A stretch of DNA of 11,111 nucleotides from a virus (IMGVR_UViG_2563366932_000013), one strand, 5' to 3'. Counted from the first letter of the stretch, positions 1 through 11,111 are shown. A program made the numbers and translations. Notes: generated from the letters alone by a model not told the origin.

Positions 1-1158
1 ATGCTCACCGTTAAGCAGATTGAAGCAGCAAAGCCGAAAGAAAAACCATACCGCCTACTCGATGGTAATGGCCTGTACCTTTATGTCCCTGTATCAGGGA
101 AAAAGGTATGGCAGCTTCGCTACAAGATTGACGGTAAGGAGAAAATCCTGACCGTCGGAAAATATCCACTTATGACTTTGCAGGAGGCAAGAGATAAAGC
201 ATGGACCGCGAGGAAAGACATCTCGGTTGGCATCGATCCGGTAAAAGCGAAAAAGGCTTCGTCTAACAACAATTCCTTTAGTGCGATTTACAAGGAATGG
301 TACGAGCACAAGAAGCAAGTCTGGTCAGTAGGCTATGCAACTGAACTTGCAAAAATGTTTGATGACGACATTTTACCTATCATCGGCGGCCTTGAAATTC
401 AGGATATTGAGCCGATGCAACTGCTGGAAGTAATCCGCAGATTTGAAGATCGCGGTGCAATGGAGCGAGCCAACAAAGCCCGCAGAAGATGCGGCGAGGT
501 TTTCCGTTACGCTATTGTCACTGGTAGGGCTAAATATAACCCGGCACCTGACCTTGCTGACGCCATGAAGGGATACCGCAAGAAGAACTTCCCGTTTCTT
601 CCTGCAGACCAGATCCCTGCATTCAACAAAGCACTGGCAACATTTTCAGGAAGTATCGTATCGCTCATTGCGACCAAAGTTTTACGCTACACAGCCCTAA
701 GAACGAAAGAGCTTCGTTCCATGCTATGGAAGAACGTCGATTTTGAAAACAGGATTATCACCATCGACGCCAGTGTGATGAAGGGACGCAAAATTCATGT
801 GGTCCCGATGTCAGACCAGGTGGTTGAACTTCTCACTACGCTAAGCTCCATCACCAAACCAGTATCAGAGTTTGTTTTTGCCGGGCGCAACGATAAGAAG
901 AAGCCAATCTGCGAGAACGCGGTTCTACTTGTGATCAAACAAATCGGCTATGAGGGTCTAGAAAGCGGTCACGGATTCAGGCATGAATTCAGCACGATTA
1001 TGAACGAGCACGAATGGCCTGCTGACGCTATTGAAGTGCAACTGGCACATGCCAACGGCGGATCTGTGCGCGGTATTTACAACCATGCTCAGTATCTCGA
1101 TAAGCGCAGAGAAATGATGCAGTGGTGGGCGGATTGGCTTGATGAGAAGGTAGAGTGA
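1..1158 (+). CDS. int: Tyrosine integrase, P4-type (N-terminal arm-binding domain of the DUF4102 kind)
   Basis: 385-aa ORF from ATG at 1 to TGA at 1156-1158. N-terminus AKPKEKPYRLLDGNGLYLYVPVSGKKVWQLRY matches the P4-family integrase arm-binding signature as I recall it. C-terminal part has HGFRHEF and a tyrosine near the C-terminus (IYNHAQY), as expected for tyrosine recombinases. Confidence 0.9.
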   Translation: MLTVKQIEAAKPKEKPYRLLDGNGLYLYVPVSGKKVWQLRYKIDGKEKILTVGKYPLMTLQEARDKAWTARKDISVGIDPVKAKKASSNNNSFSAIYKEWYEHKKQVWSVGYATELAKMFDDDILPIIGGLEIQDIEPMQLLEVIRRFEDRGAMERANKARRRCGEVFRYAIVTGRAKYNPAPDLADAMKGYRKKNFPFLPADQIPAFNKALATFSGSIVSLIATKVLRYTALRTKELRSMLWKNVDFENRIITIDASVMKGRKIHVVPMSDQVVELLTTLSSITKPVSEFVFAGRNDKKKPICENAVLLVIKQIGYEGLESGHGFRHEFSTIMNEHEWPADAIEVQLAHANGGSVRGIYNHAQYLDKRREMMQWWADWLDEKVE

Positions 1159-1309
1159 TCCGCCTTAACAACTATCGAAGAGCACAAAGCCTTGTGTGTC
1201 TCATAGGCTATGAAACAATCATTTTACATGGTTACTTCACTACTTCCGCACAATATGATATCGTTCACAATCTAAAAACATTAATAATTTATCCATTACC
1301 GCGGTTAAT

Positions 1310-1336
1310 GCCCGTCGCTTCCAACGGGCTTTTTTG
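1310..1336 (+). terminator. Rho-independent terminator downstream of int
   Basis: Perfect 6-bp stem GCCCGT (1310-1315) / ACGGGC (1324-1329) with an 8-nt loop, followed by TTTTTT (1330-1335), about 150 nt after the int stop. Confidence 0.5.
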
Positions 1337-1397
1337 TAAATTATATTTTTATTACCTTATATTAATATTGGTAATATGTCTGCATGATGTTTTATAT

Positions 1398-2174
1398 TTA
1401 TTGCGTGAGCTTCGCATGATAGCTGGAGCATCTCTTGTCATCACTAATTAGCTCCGCTTTATCCGTTCTTGCCCATATTATATTTCTTTTTATTATTTTT
1501 GCTGGATTACCGGCTGCTGCACACATAGATGGCACATCTTTAGTTACAATACTCCCATACCCAATGACAGATCCGCTTCCAACAGATACTCCTTTCATTA
1601 TAGAGACATTTCTCCCTACCCATACGTAACTAGATATAATGATATCTTTTGCCCAATTAATCCTTTTTTTGCTATGAATATCAAATATAGGATGCCCATC
1701 TGATGCACGCAAAATAACATCTCTTGCTATCATGCAGTCATGGCCAATTGTAACATTGCACTTATCAGTGACGACTTCAAAACCTGCACCTATTGTCGTT
1801 CTTCTACCGATAATAACTTTTGAACCTTTTGTTGCGACAATATCACCTTTAATCTTACTGTTTTTATGTATTCTTACGTAATTATTATCACCCCTAAATA
1901 TTACGGTAAGCCATCGACACTCAACATCATCTTCTATAATAAGTTTGTTATTGTTTCCATTGAACTGAACTTTATTCTCTTTGCTATTTACAAGATCTCC
2001 ACATACAAAAACATTACCTGACCCATTATCATCAACGGAAAACGAGTCTTGAGTCTTGAGTCTTGAGTCTTGAGTCTTGAGTCTTGAGTCTTGAGTCTTG
2101 AGTCTTGAGTCTTGAGTCTTGAGTCTTGAGTCTTGAGTCTTGAGTCTTGAGTCTTGAGTCTTGAGTCTTAACAT
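1398..2174 (-). CDS. neuO: NeuO-like polysialic acid O-acetyltransferase (hexapeptide-repeat acyltransferase with N-terminal RLKTQDS heptad repeats)
   Basis: 258-aa ORF, ATG = complement of 2172-2174. C-terminal half (VWVGRNVSIMKGVSVGSGSVIGYGSIVTKDVPSMCAAAGNPAKIIK) is typical of left-handed beta-helix hexapeptide acyltransferases. N-terminus is ML followed by (RLKTQDS)x6 encoded by the AAGACTC tract, matching what I recall of K1 NeuO carried by prophage CUS-3. Putative SD AGGA about 5 nt upstream of the ATG. Confidence 0.85.
   Translation of the reverse strand: MLRLKTQDSRLKTQDSRLKTQDSRLKTQDSRLKTQDSRLKTQDSFSVDDNGSGNVFVCGDLVNSKENKVQFNGNNNKLIIEDDVECRWLTVIFRGDNNYVRIHKNSKIKGDIVATKGSKVIIGRRTTIGAGFEVVTDKCNVTIGHDCMIARDVILRASDGHPIFDIHSKKRINWAKDIIISSYVWVGRNVSIMKGVSVGSGSVIGYGSIVTKDVPSMCAAAGNPAKIIKRNIIWARTDKAELISDDKRCSSYHAKLTQ
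2044..2169 (-). repeat. Perfect tandem heptanucleotide repeat, (AAGACTC)x18 on the coding strand (GAGTCTT on +), inside the neuO 5-prime coding region
   Basis: Counted directly: 126 bp from 2044 to 2169 is 18 uninterrupted copies of GAGTCTT. 126 is divisible by 3, so the tract keeps the downstream acetyltransferase domain in frame with the ATG at 2174. Confidence 0.95.
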
Positions 2175-2190
2175 ATTAGTATCCTACGTT

Positions 2191-2219
2191 ATTTTACCAC
2201 TAGTTACTTTTCTTGTCAT
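2191..2219 (-). promoter_or_regulatory. Putative sigma70 promoter for neuO with extended -10
   Basis: On the minus strand: -35 ATGACA (complement of 2214-2219), 17-nt spacer, TGg-TAAAAT extended -10 (complement of 2191-2199), about 17 nt upstream of the neuO ATG. Hexamer matching only; no experimental support. Confidence 0.4.
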
Positions 2220-2327
2220 TAAAAAGCATTTAAATTTTTATATTTAATTTCGTTGACGTCAATGTTTTTTGCCAATGTACTTACTTCTTTATGTGATCAG
2301 TTCATATTTTTGACGCCAACGAAACAT

Positions 2328-5273
2328 TTAGTGCTTCCCTTCTATTAAGTCTAACCTAGCTTTTATTCTTTCTATTTCTCTGCGCTGCCATGCTGCCTCG
2401 ATATAGAATAAGAGATCAGGTCTGACCCCCCATCTAGATCCTGCTGGCGTTATTTCAACGCGCTCAATGATGTCTTCCATTACCATCACTGGATTATCAT
2501 CCTCATCAACAATGATGCTCCCGTCATTATCAGTCAGCGGCATTTCCCTTTGGCCAGTAATGACGTCATCATATACTGCGGGATAATCGTCATAGCAAAG
2601 AAAGGCATAGCGGCATGTTGTGCTTTCTTCTTCCATGAGTCCGTGAGAAATAAGAACATCACGAAGTTGCTGCGCGATTACACCATGATGTATCCTCGCC
2701 CCTTCTTCCCCCTTTATAGCGACAGCGTTCAGCCATTTATAAGCGATATACCTGACGTCACCCCAGGCATCCAGCAATGTTTCGTCAGGAGAGACCGGCT
2801 CTGTCTTTAATGTTCCGTCACTGGTAACCACAGGATTGGAGCCAAGATAAACTATCGAGAACCTGTTTCCCGGACCACCAAGAGCATTTACATTATCAAG
2901 ATAAGGTTTAACATCTCCGTTCTCAAAAAGATGTTCGAGTGCGTTATATACCGCGCGACGTGGAGTACTGCTTCTGGAACCATGCAACGTTATCATTGCA
3001 CCATCTGCTGAAGACGTTGTTTCACCGCCGCTAACGATTAATCTCTGAGCGGTAACATCATCAGACGGTACTTTCTTCGCAATAATGGCGTAATTACCCT
3101 CAAGTTTGACTTCCGCGCGAACTTGTCCTGATGTACCTGCATGGACAGTCAGTGACTGGACGGCAACATCATCTGTGAAATCAACGGGTACAGGAACCGT
3201 CCTCACGCCTGACGTCGACATAAAAGTAGGAAGCGTTCTGTTAGGAGTGGCTCCGTAGACAAAATCCCTTGAAACAAATTCTTCCTGTTTAATTTTCACC
3301 CTGAAACAATACAAATCAGCCGGGTGACCATCGTGAACATAAGGATATTTTCTGTTGTTATCCCCTATGCTCCATGGGTTTAGAAAGTCTTCCCCACCGA
3401 AAATGTAGTACAGCCAGTTGTCTTTGATACAAACTGAACCAACACCAACCGCAGAGTTAACTATTCCGCCCTGATAAATCTGATCAGTAACATTAACCCA
3501 CTCTACATTATCCAGACTCCACTCATTGACGTTAACTCTGGTCATAAATGTTCTTGGATAGTTTCCTGCATAACGGTTATCAGGTTCTCCTCCTTCCCAC
3601 TCACCAAATGCGCGCTCACTGCCAAAAATAATCAGCTCATCGCCAACTTTGGCAAAAGGAAGGTTTGAGTGATGAACATTATTTGGGAAGCGAAGAGAAT
3701 TCCATGATGTACCTAAATCAGAGCTTCTGTGCAATGAACTACCGGGTTGAGTACTTAATGTCCCCCTGGTCGTCAGATACAGAATGCCATCATAATATTT
3801 TACACATGGCTCAGATGCATTCGCCTCATATTCTGCAGGTATGCGTCTGCGAACAAAGCTACCAGGAGAACCGAAAGCATCAGAGAAATAGAGTATCCCA
3901 AGCTCGCGTGGACCAATATCACCATTATGGTAGCCAACAGCAAAACTGTTATCGCTAATCGTCGCAAAACTGTGAATCTCAGTAACAGGAGTGCTTCCGT
4001 CAACAAAAGAAGGAATAGTTCCAAGACTGGTTTTTCTCCATGGTGACGAGTGAAATGATGTACCAAAACTCCAGTATCTACCCTCGTTATTCTGATCCAC
4101 ATCCTGGGTATTTTGCGTCGTAACTGTAAAAGTATTTTTATCAATAACAGTAGTCACCGTCATATTCCCGGTAACACCTGTAACACCAGAGTTTGAGAAG
4201 TTGACAAAATCACCAGCAAATAATCCGTGATCAGTAATGCGAATATAAGCGACTTGCTGATTTGCTGCTTTCGTTATACCACCATAAACGCGAAGGCTGC
4301 GACTCATTGGGCGATCCCACAACTCTGCAACCTGCAGTTTATTTCCGCTCACGGTCCGCGTCTCAATTACAGCAAAAAGGCGATTTCTGACAACCCCCAT
4401 ACTCATGCAGTGATAGTTAACTGTGGGATAGTTTTCATGTAAATCTGTAAGCCATTCCGGCGTTGTCCAGGTCTTCCCGTCATCTCCTGAGCGAACCCAT
4501 GCAACATGGAGGTTATTTACACCATGGCGGTCTCCAGCCATAAAAGGCGCATAGATGACATTGTCATATACAAACGTTTTATCCTGCGTCCAGGCGTTGT
4601 ACCACGGTGTATCTGTAATTTTAAATAACTCTCCCTGGATAAAATCTTCAGAAACATAAAAAAGAGGCTGACCCGGTATTCTCTCAAATAAAAAACGAGC
4701 ATTTTTAAATCGACTGACATCTGGAAGAGTTGATACTTTAAAAGTAAGCCCTCGCCCATCTATCTTTTCACCACCTGTTGCAACAGAAAGTAATTCTGAT
4801 AGAGCTGATGTATCATCATGAACACCATCACCAATAGCCCCCCAACCTCTTACATCATAACTGTCTCTCCATCTTGCTATCTGAAGTTTTGGGTATTTAT
4901 TCGCTCCATCTGGGTCTTCTAATTGCTGCCGTAGTTGATCAGGATCATACTTCAGCACATTCTGGAAATAGAACTGCTGTACGCCATACGCATCGTACAC
5001 AGCCATAGAATGGCCTTGCACAGTTACGAACTTGGCAATCCGTCCGTTATATACAGGGTAACCAGCAGCGTTAATGATGATTGGTTGCGAAACAGGAACG
5101 TGAGAGCCGTCTTCGTTCTCTACATAAACCTGAATCCGGTTTTCAGGATTTACCGGGTCAGTGTCAATTTTACCGATATAAATTTTGCCATTGGCTACGG
5201 CTTTAAAAGAACGCGCCATAGTGAAGAGTTGCGAAGGCATCGATACAATCACATTGGCTGTAATGTCTGTCAT
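2328..5273 (-). CDS. Tailspike endosialidase (endo-N-acetylneuraminidase) with P22 gp9-like head-binding N-terminal domain and C-terminal intramolecular chaperone-like domain
   Basis: 981-aa ORF, ATG = complement of 5271-5273, SD GGAG 8 nt upstream. First ~115 aa ([43 protein letters not shown]...VLKYDPDQ) closely match the P22 tailspike head-binding domain as I remember it. Two sialidase Asp-box motifs ([16 protein letters not shown]). C-terminus (...[10 protein letters not shown]...[29 protein letters not shown]) resembles the autoproteolytic chaperone domain of endosialidase tailspikes. Confidence 0.85.
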
Positions 5274-5330
5274 TTAATTTGCTCCAGATGCAAAGAATCG
5301 CCGCAGCATGGCCACGGTGAATTTTGGGCA

Positions 5331-5354
5331 TAAAAAAACCCAGCCGAAGCTGGG
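5331..5354 (-). terminator. Rho-independent terminator (minus strand) between the upstream gene stub and the tailspike gene
   Basis: Read on the minus strand: stem CCCAGC/GCTGGG (5339-5344 and 5349-5354) with a 4-nt loop, followed by a 7-nt U tract (complement of A run 5332-5338). Confidence 0.5.
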
Positions 5355-5373
5355 TCGTTGCGTTGGTTATCTG

Positions 5374-5582
5374 TCAGTAATTATGTACTGAAGGAGGTAA
5401 TTCTTTATTCTTAAGTCTCATCCATGCGGAAAGATTCGTTGGTCCGTCTGGCTCATTGATATCAACATCTCGTGTGTGATTGATTAAAACGTCTCTCGCC
5501 ATATCGATAATACGGGAGAACTCATAACCGCAGTCATGACATCTGCCGGAATAGTTCGATTGAATTTGTTTTAGCGCCGGAT
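5374..5582 (-). pseudogene. 3-prime fragment (about 69 codons) of a gene whose 5-prime part was lost at the IS911 junction
   Basis: The six-frame ORF 5374..5631 runs into the IS: its first 16 codons are IS-end sequence, so only the C-terminal portion ([32 protein letters not shown]...SVHNY) is non-IS DNA. I do not recognise the family. Confidence 0.45.
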
Positions 5583-5654
5583 TGAAGTGGTTTACTGAAT
5601 TTGGCCACCTGAACAGAGGTGATATGCTCACCTCAGAACAACACAGGTGCCATA

Positions 5655-6802
<1,148 letters not shown>

Positions 6803-6832
6803 CTCGGTGGCCAGTTTTTGTTGACCACTTCA

Positions 6833-7003
6833 ATGCAACAGTTCGCTATTGCAGGGGCGGCATCGGTTCGCCCTTTCAACCCGATTTTATCGGTACAGCA
6901 TTCACGAAAAAACATTTTAACCGGAGCAGACTTTAAACAACCAAGAATGAAAAGCTTGCTCGAAAAGCTTTGGGATATTTTGAAACAACAAGGCCGTCCA
7001 TGA
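6833..7003 (+). CDS. cIII: cIII-like protein
   Basis: 56-aa ORF whose ATG (6833-6835) immediately follows the IS right end. N-terminus MQQFAIAG resembles lambda CIII MQYAIAG, and a central SLLE...DIL.Q.G.P stretch is similar. It sits first in an operon followed by erf, as in lambdoid/P22 pL operons. Confidence 0.5.
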   Translation: MQQFAIAGAASVRPFNPILSVQHSRKNILTGADFKQPRMKSLLEKLWDILKQQGRP

Positions 7004-7158
7004 GTTTTACGGATAACTGGTCAGACGAAGAATTCATTCGTCAGATAAAAGAATTAATCGGTAACGAAGGAGATATTCATGTCACTTGCAACCACAGTGA
7101 AGGAGAGCAAGTTACAGAGACGCATGTACACGCAGAAAGCTCTCTGGTATCGCCATAA
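7000..7158 (+). CDS. Small hypothetical protein (52 aa) at the position that kil occupies in the P22 pL operon
   Basis: ATG at 7000 overlaps the cIII-like stop (ATGA). Acidic small protein MSFTDNWSDEEFIRQIKELIGNEGDIHV... Positional inference only; the sequence is not recognised. Confidence 0.4.
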   Translation: MSFTDNWSDEEFIRQIKELIGNEGDIHVTCNHSEGEQVTETHVHAESSLVSP

Positions 7159-7259
7159 TGGTGACCGCGAAGGAATGCGGGTATGCCTTAATTTGTCCCG
7201 AGTCGAAGTATTAAATCAGCGTTATTTCCTTGGGCCGTGTCCATTCTGAGAGCAATCAT

Positions 7260-7865
7260 ATGAGCAAAGAATTTTACGCAAGACTGGCAGCTATTCAGGA
7301 GAATCTGAACGCGCCAAAGAATCAGTACAACTCATTCGGCAAATATAAATACAGAAGCTGCGAAGATATTCTTGAAGGCGTTAAGCCGTTACTGAACGGT
7401 CTGTTTTTATCAATCAGCGATGAAGTTGTGTTGATTGGTGATCGGTATTACGTGAAAGCCACGGCAACTATTACCGATGGCGAAAACAGTCATACGGCAA
7501 CCGCTCTTGCACGAGAGGAAGAAAGCAAGAAAGGAATGGATTCTGCACAAGTTACGGGAGCTACAAGCTCTTATGCACGCAAGTATTGCCTCAATGGTTT
7601 GTTCGGCATTGATGATGCGAAAGATGCAGATACAGACGAGCATAAACATCAGCAGAACGCAGCAGCAAAGCAATCAAAACCATCACTTACACCTGAACAG
7701 GTTCTAAAAGCATTCACTGACGCAGCAATGCAGAAAAACACCGTAGAAGAGCTTAAACAGGCGTTCGCCAAAGCGTGGAAGATGCTCGAAGGGACGCCGG
7801 AGCAGCACAAAGCGCAGGACGTTTACAACATCAGACGAGACGAATTAGAAGGGGCAACTGCTTAA
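7260..7865 (+). CDS. erf: Erf single-strand annealing protein (essential recombination function)
   Basis: From ATG at 7260 the protein begins MSKEFYARLAAIQENLNAPKNQYNSFGKYKYRSCEDILEGVKPLL..., matching P22 Erf as I remember it almost residue for residue in the N-terminal domain. Stop TAA at 7863-7865. Confidence 0.9.
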   Translation: MSKEFYARLAAIQENLNAPKNQYNSFGKYKYRSCEDILEGVKPLLNGLFLSISDEVVLIGDRYYVKATATITDGENSHTATALAREEESKKGMDSAQVTGATSSYARKYCLNGLFGIDDAKDADTDEHKHQQNAAAKQSKPSLTPEQVLKAFTDAAMQKNTVEELKQAFAKAWKMLEGTPEQHKAQDVYNIRRDELEGATA

Positions 7866-8248
7866 TGGCACATTCGATTACAGTAAGACTAAACAAACCC
7901 GCAAGAGAGTTTCAGGGCGGGGAAAATATCGGATTCAACATCCGTGCTGGCGTTCAGTATTACGATCGCCAGACAAAAAAGAAAGAATGGACAAACTACA
8001 GCGCCGTTGTATTTGCCAAGCCGGGAGCGCAAGCGGATTACTATCGTAGCGTTCTGGTTGAAGGAGGCATTGTAGAAATTACCGGAGAAAACATCAGGGT
8101 TGATGTTTATCAGGGGCAAAATGGTCAATCAATCACTCTTGAATTACTGAATGCAAAGATTGGATTTGCAACTTCAGGAAACAGCCAACAGCAGCAAAGT
8201 AGCAATCATCAAAATAATCCTGAATACGACGATTCCATCCCATTCTGA
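7865..8248 (+). CDS. Phage SSB-like OB-fold protein with acidic C-terminal tail
   Basis: 127-aa ORF, ATG overlapping the erf stop (TAATG). Ends ...QQQQSSNHQNNPEYDDSIPF, echoing the E. coli SSB C-terminal tip DDDIPF preceded by a Gln-rich linker. The N-terminal part has an OB-fold-like pattern (EWTNYSAVVFAKPG...VEITGE). Confidence 0.65.
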   Translation: MAHSITVRLNKPAREFQGGENIGFNIRAGVQYYDRQTKKKEWTNYSAVVFAKPGAQADYYRSVLVEGGIVEITGENIRVDVYQGQNGQSITLELLNAKIGFATSGNSQQQQSSNHQNNPEYDDSIPF

Positions 8249-8271
8249 TTTAGAAAAATAAGGATTTAATT

Positions 8272-8568
8272 ATGCCAGCGCCTTTGTATGGTGCGGATGA
8301 CCCGCGCCGCTGTTCCGGCAATTCCGTATCGGAGGTGCTGGATAAATTCAGAAAAAACTACGATCGAATAATGTCTCTACCGCAGGAAACGAAAGAGGAA
8401 AAGGAATTTCGCCACTGTATATGGCTTGCAGAGAAAGAAGAACGCGAGCGAATTTACCAGACATCAATCCGACCATTCCGCAAAGCCACATATACCCACT
8501 TCCCTGAATATATCGACCCGCGCCTGCGTAATTACCGCTCACGCTATGGCGCTATCAGTAATGACTGA
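8272..8568 (+). CDS. Hypothetical protein (98 aa), basic and helical
   Basis: ORF with SD AAGGA 8 nt upstream of ATG 8272. Its position after erf/ssb and its size are similar to where anti-RecBCD abc genes lie in P22, but I cannot confirm this by sequence. Confidence 0.5.
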   Translation: MPAPLYGADDPRRCSGNSVSEVLDKFRKNYDRIMSLPQETKEEKEFRHCIWLAEKEERERIYQTSIRPFRKATYTHFPEYIDPRLRNYRSRYGAISND

Positions 8569-8662
8569 GGAATTTACCATGAGAGGACTTGCTTAAGAGA
8601 AAGAGTTTCGGTTCTGTTAATGACAACAAATATCTGAATGCGATGTGGCGGAGTGGGAAGAA

Positions 8663-9181
8663 ATGAAACAAATGTCACTAATTGAGATGGATGGTTTTCT
8701 GAAAGGTAAATGCATCCCAAGTGATTTAAAGGTTAACGAAACAAACGCTGAATACCTTGTCCGTAAGTTCGGTGAACTTGAATCAAAACTGGAAACGGCG
8801 TTGCGGGAGTGTAGTTCTGCTGGAATCACGATTGATAACCTTGAGGCTAAATGCGCGAAGATGGCTGCTGAAAATACCTCACTTAAGCAATCTGAGAAGG
8901 AATTTAATGACTTTTGTCGTGAGGAGTTTAGCGAATGGGAAGATGATGTTACTGAAACCCCAGCCACCGATGCTTTTCTGGCTGAAGTGCGGGCGCAGGG
9001 GGTGGATGCTGCTATAGAAGCTGCAAAAAATCTGGTGGCCCAAGAATATGAGTATAAGGATTTCAAAGCGGCGCAGAGTGATTGCTGTATGCACCCTGGT
9101 TCAGACCTGGTAGGGAAGGTTGAAATGACTGAGTGGTTAGTTGACTTTGCTGCCCAGCTTCGCAAAGGAGGCAACCAGTGA
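8663..9181 (+). CDS. Hypothetical protein (~172 aa), acidic, predicted helical/coiled-coil
   Basis: Long ORF in the same orientation as the operon. Start taken as ATG 8663; the track starts at the GTG at 8645, which is also possible. Not recognised. Confidence 0.5.
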   Translation: MKQMSLIEMDGFLKGKCIPSDLKVNETNAEYLVRKFGELESKLETALRECSSAGITIDNLEAKCAKMAAENTSLKQSEKEFNDFCREEFSEWEDDVTETPATDAFLAEVRAQGVDAAIEAAKNLVAQEYEYKDFKAAQSDCCMHPGSDLVGKVEMTEWLVDFAAQLRKGGNQ

Positions 9182-9477
9182 CTGTATGTCTTATTGATAA
9201 ACGTCGACGTGGGCAACAAATACCATCTGTTGAAATGCCGAATCACACATGGTTTTGCGTACTTGATATCGATGGTATGGATTCGTTGGTTGACACTCGT
9301 CATTACTGCGATACCGCAACAGCTACTCCGGCGAAAGCAAAGAAAATGGCTGCTCTGATAGAAAACTGGACTCCACCTGATGGTTGGTGCAATGGGAATG
9401 ATCGAGATTGGCACGAAAAAATGAAGGGCTATATCTGCGATTTTTTACGTAAATGCAACGGCTTCAGGGGGATGTGA
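9178..9477 (+). CDS. Hypothetical Cys-rich protein (99 aa)
   Basis: GTG start at 9178 overlapping the previous stop (GTGA), with a strong SD AAAGGAGG 6 nt upstream. Six cysteines. Not recognised. Confidence 0.5.
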   Translation: MTVCLIDKRRRGQQIPSVEMPNHTWFCVLDIDGMDSLVDTRHYCDTATATPAKAKKMAALIENWTPPDGWCNGNDRDWHEKMKGYICDFLRKCNGFRGM

Positions 9478-9478
9478 T

Positions 9479-10051
9479 ATGACCAAAATTAACTATCAGG
9501 CACTGCGTGAGGCGGCAGAACGTGCAATTCCGGCAATGGAACGCCTGTTAATGTTGCCAGTTGATGATGATTTGTTAAGTGAACAGGAACTTAAGGATTA
9601 CGGTGTGGATATTGATGCGCTCAACGCCTTCAAATTTCTGACCGGACCAGAAACCGTGCTGGCGCTGCTGGATGAACGGGAAAGAAACCAGCAATACATC
9701 AAACGCCGCGACCAGGAGAACGAGGAAATTGCGCTAACGGTAGGGAAGCTGCGCGTTGAGCTGGAAGCTGCAGAGAAGCGCATTGCAGAACTGGAAGCCG
9801 AACCTGTAAGCCAAACTTACAAGTTGAACGAGCTGTCGGGCAACTATCCGGTAACTCCGGATGGTTGGATAAGCTGTAGTGAGCGAATGCCCGCTCAAGA
9901 TGATTGGATTTTAATTTATTCAAAGCACGGCGAGTATATGGCAGGACAGGTACAAGGGGAATACGTGGAGTTGAGCGACGGCACTTTATCGTGGTTAGGG
10001 AACGCCTTGTACTGGATGCCTCTACCGGAACCGCCGCAGGAGGTTAATTGA
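9479..10051 (+). CDS. Ead/Ea22-like protein with C-terminal DUF551-like domain
   Basis: ATG 9479 with SD AGGGGGA. N-terminus MTKINYQALREAAERA and C-terminal W...SERMPAQDDWILIY...WMPLPEPP pattern resemble prophage Ead/Ea22-family DUF551 proteins as I recall them. Confidence 0.6.
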   Translation: MTKINYQALREAAERAIPAMERLLMLPVDDDLLSEQELKDYGVDIDALNAFKFLTGPETVLALLDERERNQQYIKRRDQENEEIALTVGKLRVELEAAEKRIAELEAEPVSQTYKLNELSGNYPVTPDGWISCSERMPAQDDWILIYSKHGEYMAGQVQGEYVELSDGTLSWLGNALYWMPLPEPPQEVN

Positions 10052-10245
10052 TGGTCTCCTTCGCGAAATATACGATTATTGACTGGATAGCATTCATTCA
10101 GGTTTTGCTCATCTGGTTTTATATGGCTTACAGGAGTGGACAGTGGATTGTCAGTGTAGCCTGTAGCAATGGATGGCGTTGGTGGAACCGAAAGAATAAA
10201 AAAAGCGCTGGCCTTGGCTTCGTTTTACGAAGCATTCAATCTTAA
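10051..10245 (+). CDS. Small hydrophobic protein (64 aa), one predicted transmembrane helix
   Basis: ATG 10051 overlapping the upstream stop, SD GGAGG 7 nt upstream. Hydrophobic stretch IIDWIAFIQVLLIWFYMAY followed by a Trp/Arg-rich tail. Confidence 0.4.
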   Translation: MVSFAKYTIIDWIAFIQVLLIWFYMAYRSGQWIVSVACSNGWRWWNRKNKKSAGLGFVLRSIQS

Positions 10246-10328
10246 CAGTCTTCAGCCTGGTTCTGTCGTTGTAGTCACCACTCAAAGCGGCATGACGATA
10301 CAAATTCACAAGCCAAAGGAGGAAGGTC

Positions 10329-10613
10329 GTGGCTAACCTGCAACTTGCCGTTAAAGGTGAATACTTCGATGCCATGATTCGCGGAGAGAAAACGGAAGAG
10401 TATCGCCTGTGTAATGACTACTGGAATAAGCGAATTATGTTCCGCGAGTATGACCGCCTGATTATCACAAAGGGATATCCGAAGCGCGACGATTCCAGCC
10501 GCAGAATTGACGTCCCGTATGACGGATATGAAATCAAGACAATCACACATCCGCACTTCGGCGATAAACCGGTAAAGGTGTTCGCTATAAAGGTGAATAT
10601 CGACAATGAATGA
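10329..10613 (+). CDS. ASCH / DUF3850-like (PUA-like beta-barrel) protein
   Basis: GTG start 10329 with a strong SD AAAGGAGGAAGG upstream. LQLAVKGEYFDAMIRGEKTEEYR... resembles ASCH-domain prophage proteins from memory. Confidence 0.5.
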   Translation: MANLQLAVKGEYFDAMIRGEKTEEYRLCNDYWNKRIMFREYDRLIITKGYPKRDDSSRRIDVPYDGYEIKTITHPHFGDKPVKVFAIKVNIDNE

Positions 10614-10614
10614 T

Positions 10615-10670
10615 AATCCTCGCACTCGCGGGGATTTCTTTTATCTGAACTCGCTACGGCGGGTTTTGTT
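10615..10670 (+). terminator. Tandem hairpin / U-tract terminator-like region after the ASCH-like gene
   Basis: Hairpin AATCCTCGC-ACTC-GCGGGGATT (10615-10636) followed by TCTTTTAT. A second short hairpin CTCGC-TACG-GCGGG (10650-10663) is followed by TTTTGTTTT. Confidence 0.4.
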
Positions 10671-10685
10671 TTATGGAGATGATAA

Positions 10686-10853
10686 ATGCACTTCCGAGTC
10701 ACAGGTGAATGGAATGGAGAGCCATTCAACAGAGTTATCGAAGCAGAGAACATCAACGACTGCTATGACCACTGGATGCTGTGGGCGCAGATAGCACATG
10801 CAGACGTAACTAATATTCGAATTGAAGAACTGAAAGAACACCAAGCCGCCTGA
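10686..10853 (+). CDS. Small hypothetical protein (55 aa)
   Basis: Not in the ORF track (below its length cut-off). ATG 10686 with SD GGAGA 6 nt upstream; hand-translated as MHFRVTGEWNGEPFNRVIEAENINDCYDHWMLWAQIAHADVTNIRIEELKEHQAA, stop TGA 10851-10853, ending inside a terminator hairpin. Confidence 0.4.
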   Translation: MHFRVTGEWNGEPFNRVIEAENINDCYDHWMLWAQIAHADVTNIRIEELKEHQAA

Positions 10854-10866
10854 TGGCGGTTTTTTA
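10844..10866 (+). terminator. Rho-independent terminator
   Basis: Stem AGCCGCC / GGCGGTT (10844-10850 and 10855-10861) with loop TGAT, followed by a T run to 10865. Confidence 0.55.
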
Positions 10867-10910
10867 TTGCCTGATTTGCAGGTTCGATTCCCTATTCGGA
10901 GATAGCACTC

Positions 10911-11111
10911 ATGCAACACGAACTACAACCTGATTCACTGGTTGATTTGAAATTCATCATGGCCGATACTGGCTTCGGTAAAACCTTCATCTATGACCGG
11001 ATTAAGTCCGGCGACCTGCCAAAAGCCAAAGTTATCCACGGGCGAGCAAGATGGTTATATCGTGACCATTGTGAATTCAAAAATAAGCTCTTAAGCCGCG
11101 CCAATGGGTAA
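10911..11111 (+). CDS. AlpA-family helix-turn-helix regulator / excisionase-like protein
   Basis: 66-aa ORF, ATG 10911 with SD GGAGA. LVDLKFIMADTGFGKTFIYDRIKSGDLPKAKVIHGRARWLYRDHCEF fits the AlpA / phage excisionase HTH pattern (recognition helix with TIY, then a basic wing with W). Stop TAA is the last three bases of the window. Confidence 0.7.
   Translation: MQHELQPDSLVDLKFIMADTGFGKTFIYDRIKSGDLPKAKVIHGRARWLYRDHCEFKNKLLSRANG

Follow-up and report, generated by a model that had tools for sequence, protein, structure and literature searches.

A neuO-bearing CUS-3-like prophage remnant at argW with ISEc52 at its deletion junctions and a putatively excisable KplE1-type recombination module

The KplE1 prophage (CPS-53) of Escherichia coli K-12 is a remnant of 10.2 kb with the 16-nt core CTGCAGGGGACACCAT at its borders, and it excises in vivo (PMC2951348). 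Its integrase gene, intS, has its own promoter overlapping attL and is expressed weakly and permanently, held down by IntS and TorI (PMC2951348, PMC3509656); supply of TorI, the recombination directionality factor (RDF), is alone enough to trigger excision, and control therefore lies in the RDF gene (PMC2951348). Fewer than 1 in 100,000 cells undergo spontaneous excision of CPS-53; overproduction of TorI leads to complete excision and curing (PMC3105296). The same recombination module is present in phages CUS-3, HK620 and Sf6 (PMC2951348, PMC3509656), and CUS-3-like phages at the argW-dsdC site are described in one report as prone to decay, the distance between neuO and dsdC falling to about 8 kb while neuO is retained (PMC9659370). 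Here we analyse an 11,111-nt stretch of viral-catalogue DNA (IMGVR_UViG_2563366932_000013; "the window" denotes this whole stretch) that bears an integrase gene, the capsule-modification gene neuO, an endosialidase gene and the excisionase gene torI. The window is very probably the gene-bearing part of an 11,377-bp defective CUS-3-like, P22-like and K1-specific prophage inserted at the 3' end of argW, beside dsdC, and equipped with a putatively excisable module rather than being a satellite. Its borders, its genes, the type of its module and the deletion junctions are established by sequence, whereas its competence to excise, the silence of torI and the routes of transfer are inferences.

The KplE1 paradigm has already been published, as has decay among CUS-3-like prophages, and our analysis leaves current understanding unchanged; what sets this case apart is the particular pair of junctions formed with the insertion sequence (IS) ISEc52, and the excision module on a CUS-3 remnant. 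The decayed elements described in neonatal-meningitis E. coli (NMEC) represent the same decay phenomenon as this remnant, whereas the text of that report does not discuss the excision module and contains no "excis" term (PMC9659370). Whether neuO resides on a live phage, on a fixed island or on a remnant able to excise matters, as it sets the stability and transferability of the trait in extraintestinal pathogenic E. coli (ExPEC) and NMEC lineages. In the present case neuO and an intact endosialidase gene are carried by a non-lytic, repressor-less remnant whose module is identical in protein sequence to one that works experimentally.

The element resembles KplE1 in its argW-dsdC site, in carrying intS at attL and torI at attR, in the core CTGCAGGGGACACCAT, in its IntS and TorI proteins (100% identical) and att arms (about 98%), in its similar size (11.4 versus 10.2 kb), and in that neither contains a repressor gene; in K-12, KplE1/CPS-53 occupies 10,215 bp of the same site, with intS first and torI last. 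The cargo differs. KplE1 carries gtr-like yfdGHI, tail-fibre fragments and yfdK-T, whereas the element carries neuO, an endosialidase gene, ISEc52 and erf, abc2 and ea genes, and the two align at their ends only, plus one 105-nt stretch at 72% identity. With CUS-3 (RS218, CP000711.1; Lederbergvirus) it shares neuO with its AAGACTC repeats, siaK1 and the argW site; it differs in its heptamer count (18, versus 19 in CUS-3) and in being without the full head, portal, terminase, injection, lysis, replication and immunity set, which makes it a remnant and not a phage.

Boundaries, attachment sites and the recombination module

The whole window is present, at 100% identity, in a 2.17-Mb E. coli scaffold (KE136718.1 of assembly GCA_000407885.1), here called the source. 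It occurs again in the complete genome of strain CEA212U, where it differs by one substitution (window position 7219) and by the number of heptamers in the neuO repeat array (8 versus 18); the 400 nt on either side of the element are identical in the two. The left flank consists of yfdC and the tRNA-Arg(CCT) gene argW, which lies on the same strand as the integrase gene and ends 161 nt ahead of its ATG, and the right flank begins with host dsdC, 188 nt past the torI stop, followed by dsdXA. In the flanks of both the source scaffold and CEA212U, no phage genes were found outside either window end. Within the window itself a tRNA gene scan returned nothing, and a search of its entire length at Rfam gathering thresholds returned no family. 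The module and the sequences next to it are as follows.

1-1158, plus strand: intS, tyrosine integrase, 385 aa (open reading frame, ORF; Pfam Arm-DNA-bind_3, Phage_int_M and Phage_integrase)
10615-10636, 10647-10666 and 10843-10862, plus strand: three terminator-like hairpins ahead of torI (hairpin scan)
10876-10891, plus strand: exact 16-nt copy of argW T-arm sequence, TTGCAGGTTCGATTCC, labelled "attR core" in the CUS-3 GenBank record
10911-11111, plus strand: torI, RDF (excisionase), 66 aa (PDB 1Z4H; phrog_66 excisionase)

A reading of the window made earlier from its sequence only (the sequence-only reading) had proposed that it starts at the integrase ATG and ends at the stop of a small excision gene, that it comprises essentially the whole remnant, and that attL lies just upstream of position 1 and attR just beyond 11111. 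All of this is borne out. The last base of the window is the last base of the torI stop codon, and inspection of the flanks for a tRNA gene and att repeats revealed, besides argW, a perfect 17-nt direct repeat, CTGCAGGGGACACCATT, at positions -176 to -160 (the 3' end of argW) and again at +74 to +90 past the window end. By simple arithmetic, a 17-mer would be shared by chance between two 400-nt flanks with a probability of about 1e-5. The element thus measures 11,377 bp including both cores, and the window falls short of it by 176 nt at the left end and 90 nt at the right, beyond which lie only argW and dsdC. Neither further phage genes at the ends nor borders lacking an att repeat or a tRNA gene, the two outcomes named beforehand as fatal to that reading, are seen in the source scaffold.

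Three independent tests show the 17-nt repeat to be the crossover core. When aligned with Sf6, the region running from xis through attP to int corresponds to the arm following torI, the core and the arm preceding int, and the chromosomal sequences diverge exactly at the core edges. Homology of relatives derived from virions to the attL region begins, in every one, at the first base of the core. Finally, the empty attB obtained by joining the outer flanks over a single core is found uninterrupted in 912 of the 5,426 complete E. coli genomes searched, with 99.8% identity among the matches listed. The reciprocal product, a predicted attP of 570 nt made by joining the inner arms, is contiguous at 96.8-98.2% identity in Sf6, HK620, IME10, HK633, N7, HF4s, Bas106, Dewey, Louie and HZ41; 17 phage records contain at least 80% of the junction in one place, and in HK620 attP is annotated. 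The earlier proposal that the RDF gene and int would be neighbours in a circular form accordingly agrees with their arrangement in Sf6, HK620 and other phages known from virions.

The protein components are equally well preserved. IntS is identical in 385 of 385 residues to both K-12 IntS and CUS-3 Int, and TorI in 66 of 66 to the Tor inhibition protein of PDB 1Z4H, to K-12 TorI and to Sf6 gp18. Relative to the K-12 copies, intS has 34 synonymous and no non-synonymous nucleotide differences, and torI four and none; divergence confined to silent changes indicates that the module has been under strong purifying selection, although each copy is today part of a remnant. On the source contig, the intS promoter and attL arm fall within the 159 nt upstream of the window, and the attR arm and core within the 90 nt after torI, the core beginning 74 nt past its stop. 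Over the 191 nt compared, attL matches that of CUS-3 at every position (100%); against K-12, the attL arm matches at 173 of 176 nt and the attR arm at 87 of 90. Every defining feature of the KplE1/HK620/Sf6-type argW module that sequence can address was found: int at attL and transcribed away from argW, torI at attR, and the core at both borders. Both genes survive because attP lies between them and places them at opposite tips of the prophage, where an internal deletion spares them together with attL and attR.

One designation in the sequence-only reading lacks support, namely that of an AlpA-family gene in a P4-type module. TorI scored 12.7 bits (E = 0.12) against Pfam Phage_AlpA (PF05930), under its 21-bit gathering cut-off, and matched no family at threshold in Pfam or NCBIfam. 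Because TorI falls below the AlpA threshold, the label "P4-type alpA-int" is a loose analogy only; the module is of the KplE1/HK620/Sf6 argW type, with attP lying between int and the RDF gene. Satellites and P4-type alpA-int islands such as CP4-57 do resemble the element in being small, in occupying a tRNA site and in encoding a small winged-helix excision factor along with a tyrosine integrase. They differ in that here int and the RDF gene flank attP, and so stand at opposite prophage ends, and in that the element has no replication, packaging or capsid-remodelling genes.

The 16-nt sequence TTGCAGGTTCGATTCC at 10876-10891 lies 19 nt upstream of torI and has its counterpart in the argW T-arm, 191-176 nt before position 1. 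The CUS-3 record (CP000711.1) annotates this 16-mer as its att cores, at 1-16 and 40192-40207, and ends at the internal argW-like repeat. We considered it as the crossover and rejected it, since the virion homology, the empty site and attP all fit the 17-nt core. The CUS-3 reference record accordingly appears to be some 310 bp short, omitting torI and the true attR, whereas the full-length relative in strain S88 continues to torI and dsdC. This exposes a practical annotation problem, the reference apparently being without both its excisionase gene and its true attR. The copy of TTGCAGGTTCGATTCC before torI is conserved in Sf6 and in K-12 KplE1. The phage thus holds the last 31 nt of argW split by an insert of about 290 nt that contains torI, with TTGCAGGTTCGATTCC on one side and the true core on the other; this split copy may be left over from an earlier attachment site or from the event that brought in the RDF gene.

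ISEc52 and the missing interior

The body of the prophage is interrupted by an IS whose two edges define the deletion.

5374-5582, minus strand: 3' fragment of ant (antirepressor; P22_AR_C), cut by the IS; homology to CUS-3 stops at 5582
5583-6832, plus strand: ISEc52, IS3 family, 1,250 bp (named by the Prokaryotic Genome Annotation Pipeline; HTH_Tnp_1 and rve domains; TG...CA ends)
6833-7003, plus strand: cIII-like ORF of 56 aa, its ATG abutting the right IS end (phrog_550)

The sequence-only reading had listed an integrase, an excision gene, recombination genes, neuO and a capsule depolymerase, an inventory that stands; it does not mention ISEc52, the element that created the remnant. This copy has the characteristics of the IS3 family: imperfect 29-nt terminal inverted repeats (listed at 5583-5609 and 6806-6832) with TG...CA ends, a DDE (rve) domain, and two ORFs, orfA (5619-5957) in frame 0 and orfB (5984-6802) in frame -1. 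It is 100% identical to copies at three other loci. The listed ant ORF (5374-5631) extends 49 nt into the IS.

Comparison with CUS-3 defines what is absent. Window positions 1-5582 correspond to CUS-3 192-5780 at 98.9% identity and 7000-10891 to CUS-3 36317-40207 at 99.9%, so that approximately 30.5 kb (CUS-3 5781-36316) is missing and is replaced by ISEc52 and a 167-bp segment not derived from CUS-3. The deleted interval holds immI, the injection, head, portal, terminase and lysis genes, Q, nin, O/P, cro, cI, N/PL, ral, cIII and kil. The 167-bp segment (6833-6999, to the right of the IS) is missing from the CUS-3 RS218 record and is 99% identical to sequence in strain ExPEC XM, so the remnant descends from a mosaic variant of CUS-3. 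In the K1 strain S88 the full-length relative spans 40,052 bp from the start of int to the end of torI, and it has the same right end, with torI under the same protein accession and then dsdC.

Simple insertion of an IS3-family element normally leaves a target-site duplication of 3-4 bp. No such duplication surrounds ISEc52 here (flanking triplets GAT | IS | ATG), which fits a deletion formed at the IS and not simple insertion. We propose that ISEc52 would have inserted into ant, and that an IS-adjacent deletion, or recombination between two IS copies, would then have removed about 30 kb. Both ISEc52 junctions are uninterrupted, besides the source assembly, in a single one of the 5,426 complete genomes (CEA212U); the deletion is therefore confined to one clone and is probably recent. 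Two further genomes were considered and set aside. ESBLEC_HM50 carries a full-length prophage with ISEc52 in ant, which suggested a direct precursor, but its IS lies 21 bp away and is flanked by a near-perfect 3-bp duplication, denoting an independent insertion; the apparent right junction of AR_0058 is a match in two pieces across 320 bp.

Excision and routes of transfer

IntS and TorI are identical to those of KplE1, which excises when TorI is supplied, and by this analogy with an experimentally active system the element is likely to be excision-competent. IntS would be made at a low, self-repressed level from the promoter overlapping attL. torI is probably kept silent, judging from the three terminator-like hairpins that precede it and the loss of PL and N; a consensus scan found no sigma-70-like promoter ahead of it, which is a weak negative. 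Deprived of PL/N-antiterminated transcription and placed behind three hairpins, torI would seldom be expressed, and the element would therefore be stably integrated and excise rarely. Were TorI produced, IntS, TorI and integration host factor would be expected to recombine the 17-nt cores, releasing an 11,360-bp non-replicating circle and restoring argW.

Several points weigh against this picture of a stable, excisable remnant of a K1 phage. The att arms carry three substitutions each relative to K-12, and excision has been seen for KplE1, whereas the competence of the element is predicted by comparison with it. The Sf6 annotation places a putative "pI" promoter directly upstream of torI; a weak promoter in that position may conceivably exist, and transcription running out of the IS through the early-left genes might arrive at torI should the hairpins be leaky. 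As to origin, the junctions do not discriminate between IS-adjacent (intramolecular, one-ended) transposition and recombination between two IS copies. The K1 genotype, moreover, was examined in CEA212U only.

The arm substitutions are also what a dead, permanently fixed island would display, one in which the module looks intact and excision has been lost through changes in the att arms or through an unexpressed torI. Deletion of PL, N and cI, the hairpins before torI, and the rarity of excision of the K-12 counterpart when TorI is not induced (fewer than 1 in 1e5 cells; PMC3105296) would suit such an island equally. We regard it as unlikely, given that the proteins are those of the experimentally active system, that intS has accumulated 34 synonymous and no non-synonymous changes, that both cores are perfect, and that attL is the same as that of CUS-3 over 191 nt; at the two upstream variable positions of attL, furthermore, the window has the bases of the functional phage Sf6.

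It had further been suggested that the remnant might be mobilised by a helper phage. In the form in which this could apply, a P22-like phage, either resident in the cell or superinfecting it, would package the excised 11.4-kb circle and transfer it at high frequency, as happens with P4 and with phage-inducible chromosomal islands. The intact int/RDF/att module would serve such a lifestyle, and potential helpers have homologues of the early-left genes and of the tailspike head-binding domain. Gene content gives the suggestion no support. The deletion has taken the genes for both the small and the large terminase, those for replication and all structural genes but the tailspike, and the window ORFs, in the domain searches, include no replication, primase, packaging, capsid, capsid-redirecting or satellite-type domain. 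P22-like headful packagers have their pac site within the small-terminase gene. This examination was by gene content and domains, and found neither a satellite-type gene nor a pac site, a cryptic pac sequence being beyond the reach of such data. An 11.4-kb circle that does not replicate would also be about a quarter of a P22-type headful of about 40 kb, and would not form the concatemer on which such packaging depends. We therefore judge helper mobilisation of this kind very improbable: the element is not a helper-exploiting satellite.

It is scarcely credible that the window is an arbitrary cut from a larger, perhaps complete prophage and its minimal appearance a cutting artefact, for while its edges fall exactly on gene edges, as annotation-based cutting would produce, the source contig and CEA212U continue into argW and yfdC on one side and dsdC and dsdX on the other.

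For the defective, excisable prophage that we favour, two transfer routes would be realistic: generalised transduction, and homologous recombination with an incoming P22-like phage. Sf6 shares with the window a block comprising int (window 1-1151, 97% identity) and another corresponding to the tailspike head-binding segment (4936-5288, 88%), and these bracket the neuO-endosialidase cassette; recombination would take place in the two blocks.

Cargo genes and other reduced CUS-3 elements

The remaining contents of the window fall between the module genes and the IS.

1398-2174, minus strand: neuO, polysialic acid O-acetyltransferase, 258 aa, in frame (phase ON) (ORF; Hexapep domain; translation includes (RLKTQDS)x6)
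2044-2169, minus strand: heptanucleotide contingency repeat, 18 copies of AAGACTC on the coding strand (GAGTCTT on the plus strand) (Tandem Repeats Finder: period 7, 18.0 copies, 100% matches)
2328-5273, minus strand: endosialidase tailspike, 981 aa, intact including the head-binding and C-terminal chaperone domains (Pfam domains)
5337-5356, minus strand: hairpin resembling an intrinsic terminator, located between the tailspike gene and the ant fragment (hairpin scan)
7260-8568, plus strand: recombination genes erf (7260-7865), an ssb-like ORF (7865-8248) and abc2, anti-RecBCD (8272-8568) (Pfam ERF and Anti-RecBCD_p2; phrog_44)
8663-10853, plus strand: early-left "ea" genes, namely hkaH-like, DUF7739, Ead/Ea22-DUF551, DUF4752, a 94-aa ORF annotated ASCH and a 55-aa ORF (annotation, domains)

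Full-length NeuO is translated when the repeat number is divisible by 3 (PMC13001214), and neuO is reportedly regulated by DsdC (PMC9659370), whose gene adjoins attR. In the integrated state neuO would be the only clearly host-relevant gene expressed, in a phase-variable fashion and ON with 18 repeats. By direct count the array of CEA212U (locus 21044-21099) has 8 full copies, and its annotated neuO ORF is truncated; in the source (18, ON) and CEA212U (8, OFF), two isolates that are nearly identical, phase variation can thus be seen directly. A complete K1 capsule locus is present in CEA212U (kpsFEDUCS, the alpha-2,8-polysialyltransferase gene, neuC, neuB and kpsTM), and because this kps/neu cluster is complete the substrate of NeuO is present in that host.

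The tailspike yielded all six expected Pfam hits (Head_binding, End_N_terminal, End_beta_propel, End_beta_barrel, End_tail_spike and Peptidase_S74) and is identical to CUS-3 siaK1 in 975 of 981 residues. Its gene is probably silent, to judge from the loss of the late promoter and Q and from the terminator-like hairpin on the IS side. The cIII-like ORF, erf, the ssb-like ORF, abc2 and the ea ORFs represent the distal portion of a lambdoid early-left operon. Among these early-left genes, the DUF4752 gene (10048-10336) is frameshifted by an extra A at 10198 relative to CUS-3; the S88 annotation likewise records a frameshift in this gene, so the lesion may be older than the large deletion.

Reduction of CUS-3 at IS elements has occurred elsewhere. 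In 19AR0253 and 19AR1321, ISEc52 lies 357 bp deeper into ant and the right junction 152 bp further on; in PE144, ISEc52 links a fragment of an injection gene to a point just before torI; FDAARGOS_1302 and APEC E19019 carry a different IS3-family element in two copies. N63, an isolate from cerebrospinal fluid, has another CUS-3 remnant at the same site. In CP007275.1 the deletion leaves the prophage through attR and dsdCXA into emrY, with loss of torI, and one further remnant has lost the tailspike gene and kept late genes. Altogether, IS3-family-mediated reductions of CUS-3 account for at least six junction architectures; ISEc52 occupies four positions, three of which are deletion remnants. 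None of these three ISEc52 remnants has a target duplication, which is near-perfect in the full-length HM50 prophage. Most of these shrunken islands retain the IntS/TorI/att module.

It is possible, if rather doubtful, that repeated independent IS3-family deletions shrink CUS-3 to islands of about 10-13 kb that keep neuO, and that selection could favour excision-competent "neuO contingency cassettes" of this form. If true, such cassettes would be lost or regained as a unit, and they would constitute a reservoir from which incoming P22-like phages acquire K1 host range, via recombination in int and the tailspike head-binding segment.

In ExPEC XM (NZ_CP025328.1, locus 4001-15244) a xis-int pair of the lambda type is linked to the neuO-endosialidase cassette, with an 84-nt scar of the 3' end of intS (window 1075-1158). 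Read from this arrangement, ExPEC XM shows that shuffling of modules has evidently happened. In the ExPEC XM chromosome erf...xis-int-neuO-tailspike run contiguously in that order, an unusual arrangement for a prophage that had integrated by way of that int.

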